Below are positions 4,149-4,170 of a DNA stretch of 4,217 nucleotides, piece after piece. Source of the DNA: Escherichia phage Qbeta; sequence record AB971354.1; one strand, written 5' to 3'. The notes beneath the pieces were generated by a model that worked only from the letters and a program-made list of their open reading frames with translations, made no database searches and had not been told where the DNA came from. Position numbers and translations under genes: made by a program. Every line of letters begins with the position of its first letter. Position 1 is the first letter of the stretch.

Positions 4149-4170
4149 ATTGTGAATAAATTATCACAAT
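4149..4170 (+). other. 3' UTR hairpin (7-bp stem, 8-nt A/U-rich loop)
   Basis: AUUGUGA (4149-4155) pairs with UCACAAU (4164-4170), loop AUAAAUUA (4156-4163). Confidence 0.6.

Follow-up and report, generated by a model that had tools for sequence, protein, structure and literature searches.

The A/U-rich loop of hairpin V in the Qβ 3′ untranslated region, a sequence-constrained and plausible candidate contact for Hfq

The 3′ domain of levivirus genomes is closed by helix ld IX and holds hairpins U1, U2 and V (Rumnieks & Tars, 2012, PMC3561173). A large adenine-rich loop in hairpin V has already been listed for MS2, Qβ, SP and AP205; in PRR1, C-1, Hgal1 and M the hairpin is missing and its place is taken by nothing more than an unpaired stretch, and the function of the hairpin was left undecided apart from a tentative link to the maturation protein in MS2 (PMC3561173). 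In the Qβ virion the 3′ UTR forms a compact five-way junction, whose parts are labelled R1, U2, V2 and U1, plus a connecting helix; the same cryo-EM model pairs 4124-4129 with the last 6 nt of the genome (Chang et al., 2022). A long-range pseudoknot involving the U1 loop has been published (Klovins & van Duin, 1999, as cited in later work).

The first-pass annotation of this locus took Hfq to be the host factor that Qβ plus-strand replication requires, and to bind A-rich single-stranded RNA and the 3′ region; the literature bears out this premise. Hfq acts on replicase's access to the plus-strand 3′ end, helping the enzyme to reach it (Schuppli 1997, 2000, as cited in later work), and it favours single-stranded A/U-rich sequence next to stem-loops (PMC2764445, citing Senear & Steitz, 1976, among others).

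We analysed a window of 4,217 nt, the whole stretch of DNA under study, which is a complete Qβ genome with 100% identity to AY099114 over 41-4200 and 99.8% identity to GQ153931. Its open reading frames are A2 (61-1323), coat with a read-through extension, and replicase; because replicase ends at 4121, the 3′ UTR comprises 4122-4217. Folding of 4119-4217 (z = -7.2) gave a closing helix around four hairpins, in the order U2, V, a small extra helix and U1, in agreement with the five-way junction of the virion. The loop that had been flagged, 8 nt and A/U-rich at 4156-4163, is present, with ATAAATTA sitting between two complementary 9-nt arms; its hairpin, described as the middle one of the 3′ UTR, does lie there, but as the second of four rather than strictly in the middle. 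The features of the domain are as follows.

4124-4130, plus strand: 5′ strand of ld IX, pairing with the 3′-terminal nucleotides (inverted repeat and minimum-free-energy fold)
4130-4146, plus strand: hairpin U2, GGCGCC-AAUAU-GGCGCC, the neighbour of hairpin V (minimum-free-energy fold and inverted repeat)
4147-4155, plus strand: 5′ arm of hairpin V, TAATTGTGA / UAAUUGUGA, a 100% complementary 9-nt arm
4156-4163, plus strand: apical loop of hairpin V, AUAAAUUA, 8 nt between the arms, unpaired with P = 0.88
4164-4172, plus strand: 3′ arm of hairpin V, TCACAATTA / UCACAAUUA, the complementary arm (fold)
4155-4180 (-63 to -38 from the 3′ end), plus strand: RNase T1 oligonucleotide AAUAAAUUAUCACAAUUACUCUUACG, which takes in the loop together with the 3′ arm and one half of the small hairpin that follows
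4184-4210, plus strand: 3′-terminal hairpin U1, which binds the maturation protein in the virion (fold and literature)
4195-4202, plus strand: U1 loop core CUGCUUUG, the published long-range pseudoknot partner
2972-2979, plus strand: U1 pseudoknot partner UAAAGCAG, complementary to the U1 loop and about 1216 nt upstream of it
4211-4217, plus strand: 3′-terminal strand of ld IX, CCUCCCA-3′, the end thought to become accessible via Hfq (inverted repeat and minimum-free-energy fold)

Folded alone, hairpin V has a dG of -7.3 kcal/mol (z = -4.6), a value matched by none of 200 shuffled sequences; no other main hairpin of the 3′ UTR is as weak, the others reaching -13.2 and -15.3 kcal/mol. Its loop is composed of 5 A and 3 U (8/8 A/U), and local (as opposed to full-genome) partition-function folding leaves the entire 8-mer unpaired with the probability of 0.88 given above. 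On the minus strand, the complement of 4147-4172 folds equally well (-8.2 kcal/mol, z = -4.8) and presents, at a distance of about 55 nt from the minus-strand 5′ end, a loop rich in U, UAAUUUAU (UUUUCUUUCUUU in group IV); U-rich sequence of this type is favoured by S1. A laboratory isolate of Qβ co-evolved with E. coli (JF719735), compared with 4119-4200 of the window, carries GGCAGG for GGGAGG in the 5′ strand of ld IX and AGUAU for AAUAU in the U2 loop, and its hairpin V is identical.

The flagged loop caps hairpin V (V2), as published for the 3′ domain of leviviruses, and is a textbook element and no discovery. It lies within the domain closed by ld IX and 5′ of U1, it is a large adenine-rich apical loop (8 nt in Qβ; 10-12 nt and 55-83% A in homologues), and its structure is kept among relatives despite sequence change. 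Set beside the levivirus hairpin V (Beekwilder et al., 1995; PMC3561173), it occupies the same place inside ld IX upstream of U1 and shares the large A-rich loop, and we found no structural difference. A search of the window against the Rfam 15 covariance models returned no phage 3′ UTR family and only chance-level matches (E = 0.55 and 0.99).

We compared 16 complete or near-complete Qubevirus genomes and five further Qβ-like 3′ ends. Hairpin V stands at the same position in 16/16 of the genomes, with a stem that has been wholly replaced between clades and a loop whose sequence has been swapped yet is A-rich in each.

Qβ-like stem: AAUUGUGA / UCACAAUU
M11 and MX1 stem: AGGUUAG / CUAACCU
Group IV stem: GRRAGGAG / CUCCYYUC, with a conserved A·C mismatch
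Qβ-like loop: AUAAAUUA; BR12 has AUCAAUUA
M11 and MX1 loop: CAAUACUUAAA and CAAACUUAAA, on the pattern CAA(U)ACUUAAA
Group IV loop: AAAGAAAGAAAA; SP has AAAGAAAGGAAA

Compensatory changes support the stem in both Qubevirus clades, as judged from the aligned sequences. Three pairs are altered on both sides in group IV (pair counts), and in group III one pair, 4149/4170, changes from A-U to G-C in BR12, VK, M11 and MX1; counted over the whole structure, covariation in groups III and IV exceeds both shuffled and slid controls. The loop AUAAAUUA is invariant in 11/12 Qβ-like sequences, and the 12-nt purine-only loop of group IV is invariant in 6/7 genomes while three stem pairs covary. Diversity within each clade, as differences per site, was as follows.

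V loop: 0.021 in Qβ-like sequences, 0.024 in group IV
U1 loop (essential): 0.053 in Qβ-like sequences, 0.0 in group IV
U2 loop: 0.16 in Qβ-like sequences, 0.25 in group IV
Genome mean: 0.068 in Qβ-like sequences, 0.184 in group IV

In both clades the V loop is therefore 3- to 8-fold less diverse than the genome mean and 7- to 10-fold less diverse than the adjacent U2 loop, and in either clade its conservation roughly equals that of the essential U1 pseudoknot loop. Because diversity within clades is so low, we conclude that the loop is constrained in sequence and is more than an unpaired spacer.

Beyond these genomes, IMG/VR searched by replicase yielded 80 loci at ≤55% identity. Only four of them had plausibly complete 3′ ends, an uninformative sample in which no large A-rich loop occurred (0/4). 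When the invariant 3′ terminus was sought by exact matching, SP alone was recovered among viral contigs and nothing among metagenome contigs. The FI record (EF068134) stops inside U1 at ...CUGCUUUGC, so that its 3′ end is missing, and the replicase stop annotated in it is placed further downstream than in other group IV phages, leaving an annotated UTR of only 56 nt.

Neither the hairpin nor the base composition of its loop would carry much weight in a single genome. By our estimate a hairpin of 8-9 bp is expected about once per 4.2-kb genome by chance; sequence comparison is what raises hairpin V above that level, through its recurrence at the same place in 16/16 genomes, its compensatory stem and a loop less variable than its neighbours. 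Among the Qβ loops of at least 7 nt in a sliding-window census, none is richer in A than the V loop (62% A, a tied value), and it is the sole one that is 100% A/U; by the same census it ranks top for A-richness in NL95 and SP, but not in M11 or MX1. An all-A/U loop is only modestly unusual, because large predicted loops are generally A-rich, many others in these genomes being 50-70% A, and we dropped A/U-richness alone as evidence for that reason.

The loop also opens an unusual RNase T1 fragment. In an in-silico complete RNase T1 digest, the G-free fragment 4155-4180 (26 nt) is the longest of 1020, with the V loop at its 5′ end. Because it is the longest G-free stretch of the genome, and lies in the 3′ UTR, RNase T1-based selection is biased toward it; in such a selection the longest G-free fragment would be favoured by any single-strand-binding protein. 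This fragment, at exactly -63 to -38, is probably the oligonucleotide that S1, and possibly also host factor, reportedly selected in the work of Senear and Steitz in 1976, with which the 1977 work of Goelz and Steitz is reportedly also concerned. The title of the latter, as it appears in a reference list, is ‘S1 recognizes two sites in Qβ RNA’ (Goelz & Steitz, 1977).

We tentatively favour the reading that the V loop is a docking platform for Hfq, possibly shared with S1, that opens ld IX for replicase; we hold this to be a serious possibility that falls somewhat short of probable. Hairpin V forms one arm of a five-way junction and is one arm removed from the closing helix, which pairs the 3′-terminal CCUCCCA and sequesters the 3′ end. 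Its loop would offer the host cofactors of minus-strand initiation an exposed, sequence-constrained A/U-rich landing pad, occupied by Hfq, with S1 of the replicase holoenzyme probably as a partner or a competitor. Held on the loop, the easily melted A/U-rich stem and the G-free stretch 4155-4180, Hfq would sit beside the closing helix, where it could open ld IX (4124-4130/4211-4217) and let replicase reach the 3′ end. We infer both steps, the binding of Hfq at the V loop and the melting of ld IX by that binding. Host-factor-independent Qβ, described by Schuppli and colleagues, is said to bear a mutation that unpairs the 3′-terminal CCC.

Several properties count for a role of the loop in Hfq docking: it is accessible, its stem is conserved, its diversity is low, it has neither an RNA partner nor a listed virion contact, its hairpin is the weakest of the main ones, its A-richness is kept across clades, and it belongs to the longest G-free fragment. 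As an A/U-rich site it is well formed, with a single strand that is 8/8 A/U, bounded by a helix (a 9-bp stem) and unpaired at P = 0.88. In this it is reminiscent of the Hfq sites of DsrA, OxyS and ompA, which are likewise A/U-rich strands bounded by helices (PMC2764445); it differs from them in being a loop rather than a linker, without a 3′ U-tail and in a viral genome, and it is proposed to serve the melting of a helix for a polymerase where they serve sRNA-mRNA annealing.

As a distal-face site the loop does less well. Such (A-R-N)n sites, of which the rpoS leader is an example, are similarly single-stranded and A-rich, but they hold at least three consecutive single-stranded A-R-N triplets, whereas the Qβ loop, a closed hairpin loop of 8 nt, has one, or two when the paired A4155 is included. 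A single triplet occurs in M11 and in MX1, SP has two after one substitution, and NL95 and FI have three, the group IV loop AAAGAAAGAAAA containing AGA-AAG-AAA. A closed loop of 8 nt is also short for wrapping around a face of Hfq, and the T1 selection with S1 and host factor reportedly concerned a naked fragment. The main text of a 2026 preprint on a host-factor screen does not mention hfq.

The A-rich loop is, moreover, shared with phages that use other cofactors. Predicted 3′-domain folds of MS2, GA and AP205 all contain A-rich loops; MS2 grows normally on hfq mutants, and its host factor has been reported to be IF1. Because these phages share the loop, and MS2 uses IF1, the feature is older and broader than the use of Hfq. 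The first-pass suggestion that this loop contacts Hfq thus comes out divided: exposure, constraint and the lack of an RNA partner or a listed virion contact speak for it, the scarcity of A-R-N triplets speaks against it, and its specificity for Hfq is weakened by the A-rich loops of MS2, GA and AP205 and by S1, an equally good ligand. We consider Hfq at the V loop a plausible candidate contact, as yet unproven.

It is also possible, although we think it unlikely, that the V loop and the G-free stretch that follows it contact S1, the alpha subunit of the replicase holoenzyme, instead of Hfq, as a third, 3′-proximal S1 site that helps to hold the 3′ domain of the template on the enzyme. Recognition of the plus strand is mediated by S1 at internal sites, A/U-rich single strands are what this protein prefers, and the exposure and constraint of the loop argue for S1 as well as they do for Hfq. 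The loop also lies within the fragment -63 to -38 that was reportedly S1-selected; the bias of T1 selection toward long fragments applies here too. Against such a site, the functional S1 sites in the literature surveyed are the S and M sites, with no role given there to a 3′-proximal one, and the purine-only group IV loop AAAGAAAGAAAA is unlike the U- or pyrimidine-rich sequence that S1 usually favours. Like the S-site and M-site, the V loop would be a host single-strand-binding site on the same RNA; those sites serve plus-strand template recognition and are internal and functionally validated, whereas the 3′-proximal oligonucleotide is reportedly known from fragment selection only.

The M-site bears the V-loop sequence at its 5′ edge: the 10-mer AUAAAUUAUC, which comprises the loop and the first two stem bases (4156-4165), recurs at 2553-2562, inside the T1 fragment 2553-2568 (50% A). 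Co-variation between the copies is absent, since the change is confined to the loop in BR12 and to the M-site copy in FrMerlot, so the match is probably coincidence; by our estimate, chance alone would produce about eight pairs of repeated 10-mers in 4.2 kb. Group IV phages carry internal copies of their own V loops, at 3564-3574 in NL95 (GAAAGAAAACU), 3517-3528 in FI (AGAAAGAAAACU) and 3591-3599 in SP (AGAAAGAAA). By our reading of the frame the group IV copy encodes a ..KKT.. segment of replicase, and we take it to correspond to the most A-rich long T1 fragment of Qβ, 3495-3509 (ACCAAUACUAAAAAG). It could be a second A-rich protein-binding site or a simple coding coincidence.

A purely architectural role, which we regard as doubtful, would make the A-rich loop an RNA tertiary element whose adenines dock a neighbouring junction helix, in the manner of an A-minor contact, and shape the 3′ domain independently of host proteins. 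The published occurrence of the loop in MS2, Qβ, SP and AP205 (PMC3561173), and the predicted A-rich 3′-domain loops of MS2, GA and AP205, which have other hosts and cofactors, fit such a role, as does the compact five-way junction of the virion, in which the loop has no listed protein contact. Within clades the loop sequence is under constraint, and between clades it is altered along with the remainder of the domain; differing, clade-conserved loops suit one invariant host protein no better than they suit an RNA tertiary contact or a phage partner that co-evolves. Yet we identified no receptor helix, PRR1, C-1, Hgal1 and M do without the hairpin, and the part of Chang et al. (2022) consulted, describing a map of 4.6-6.1 Å, reports no tertiary contact of V2.

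We give little credence to the simplest alternative, that the loop has no sequence-specific role and the hairpin is a structural spacer, A/U-rich because unpaired regions tend to be A-rich. Other large predicted loops do reach 50-70% A, some leviviruses lack the hairpin, and a hairpin of 8-9 bp is by our estimate close to chance level. A spacer would nevertheless hardly be 3- to 8-fold less diverse than the genome mean and 7- to 10-fold less diverse than the U2 loop, or keep a 12-nt purine-only loop unchanged in 6/7 group IV genomes while three pairs of its stem covary.

Binding of a virion protein to the V loop, either the maturation protein A2 or a coat dimer, is very improbable. There is said to be ‘some evidence’ for hairpin V of MS2 as a maturation-protein site (PMC3561173), and an MBP-A2 fusion shifts the whole Qβ 3′ UTR fragment 4126-4217 (Chang et al., 2022). 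In the same study, however, the old MS2 RNase-protection result is ascribed to in vitro binding, and the complete Qβ gRNA model has Mat bound to U1, an exposed coat dimer to U2 and an internal dimer to R1 (4104-4116). The supplementary tables of that study give no stem-loop in contact with protein (within 5 Å of Mat or coat protein in the virion model) with coordinates in 4148-4183; at a map resolution of 4.6-6.1 Å this disfavours a virion-protein contact. The tables list 4104-4116 as stem-loop #57 and the operator-like 4132-4144 as #58, which, from the numbering, would be U2.

A long-range RNA-RNA interaction of the V loop, a kissing loop or pseudoknot such as that of the U1 loop, we regard as scarcely credible and rejected, since nothing covaries with the loop and the same search recovered the partner of U1. 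Such contacts do organise the domain (the U1 pseudoknot, and a link from the M-site region to the 3′ domain), and the genome contains several 6- to 7-nt runs complementary to the V loop; the plus strand nonetheless holds no perfect complement of it. We mapped complementary runs of at least 6 nt in the 16 Qubevirus genomes onto a whole-genome alignment. About 19 runs of at least 6 nt (G-U counted) shared no alignment column common to all three clades, and the two best shared columns are conserved coding sequence (..PPGWFE.. and ..NMFFQ..) that stays static when the loop changes. As a positive control, the U1 partner UAAAGCAG was recovered at one column in 15/15 genomes with the loop core. Across the 16 genomes we found no covarying partner for the V loop and nothing like the conserved partner of U1.

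The U1 loop is the closest comparison for the V loop, as a neighbouring loop in the same domain with comparably low diversity (pseudoknot of Klovins & van Duin, 1999); it has an invariant partner about 1216 nt upstream, whereas the V loop has none. That partner, at 2972-2979, is invariant in 16/16 genomes. The U1 loop core CUGCUUUG is invariant in the same comparison with the sole exception of HL4-9, which has CUGCUUAG and an uncompensated partner; this change may reflect a mismatch that is tolerated, or else an artefact, of sequencing or of a primer, close to the 3′ end.

The region of the U1 partner contains a more canonical Hfq motif. Twelve nucleotides downstream of the partner, AAGAACAGUAAG at 2991-3002 forms (A-R-N)4, the canonical distal-face motif, and is the only conserved run of this kind near the 3′ domain; because it lies so close to the U1 partner (2972-2979), it would be brought beside the 3′ UTR. 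The run stays (ARN)4 in 16/16 genomes. Since its frame is that of the conserved replicase peptide K-N-S-K, protein constraint alone could account for its conservation. Two of the three other (ARN)3 runs of Qβ lie in the M-site, at 2750-2758 and 2765-2773. Hfq might bind a composite site, with its distal face on AAGAACAGUAAG and its rim or proximal face on the V loop, although we see this as a long shot. If true, one Hfq hexamer would hold the M-site-proximal region against the 3′ domain as ld IX opens, and in group IV phages an ARN-type site would have been transferred to the V loop itself.

Hairpin V and the idea of Hfq as its ligand are both already in the literature. Because the hairpin and its A-rich loop had been described, and protein binding by the oligonucleotide that contains it is reported from earlier work, docking of Hfq at the V loop would refine the textbook model and not change it. 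Qβ is the founding system for Hfq, and the position of Hfq on Qβ RNA at nucleotide level, when it frees the 3′ end, is a gap in the literature surveyed. An Hfq contact at hairpin V, if true, would close this small, old gap and provide a defined viral substrate for helix melting by Hfq.
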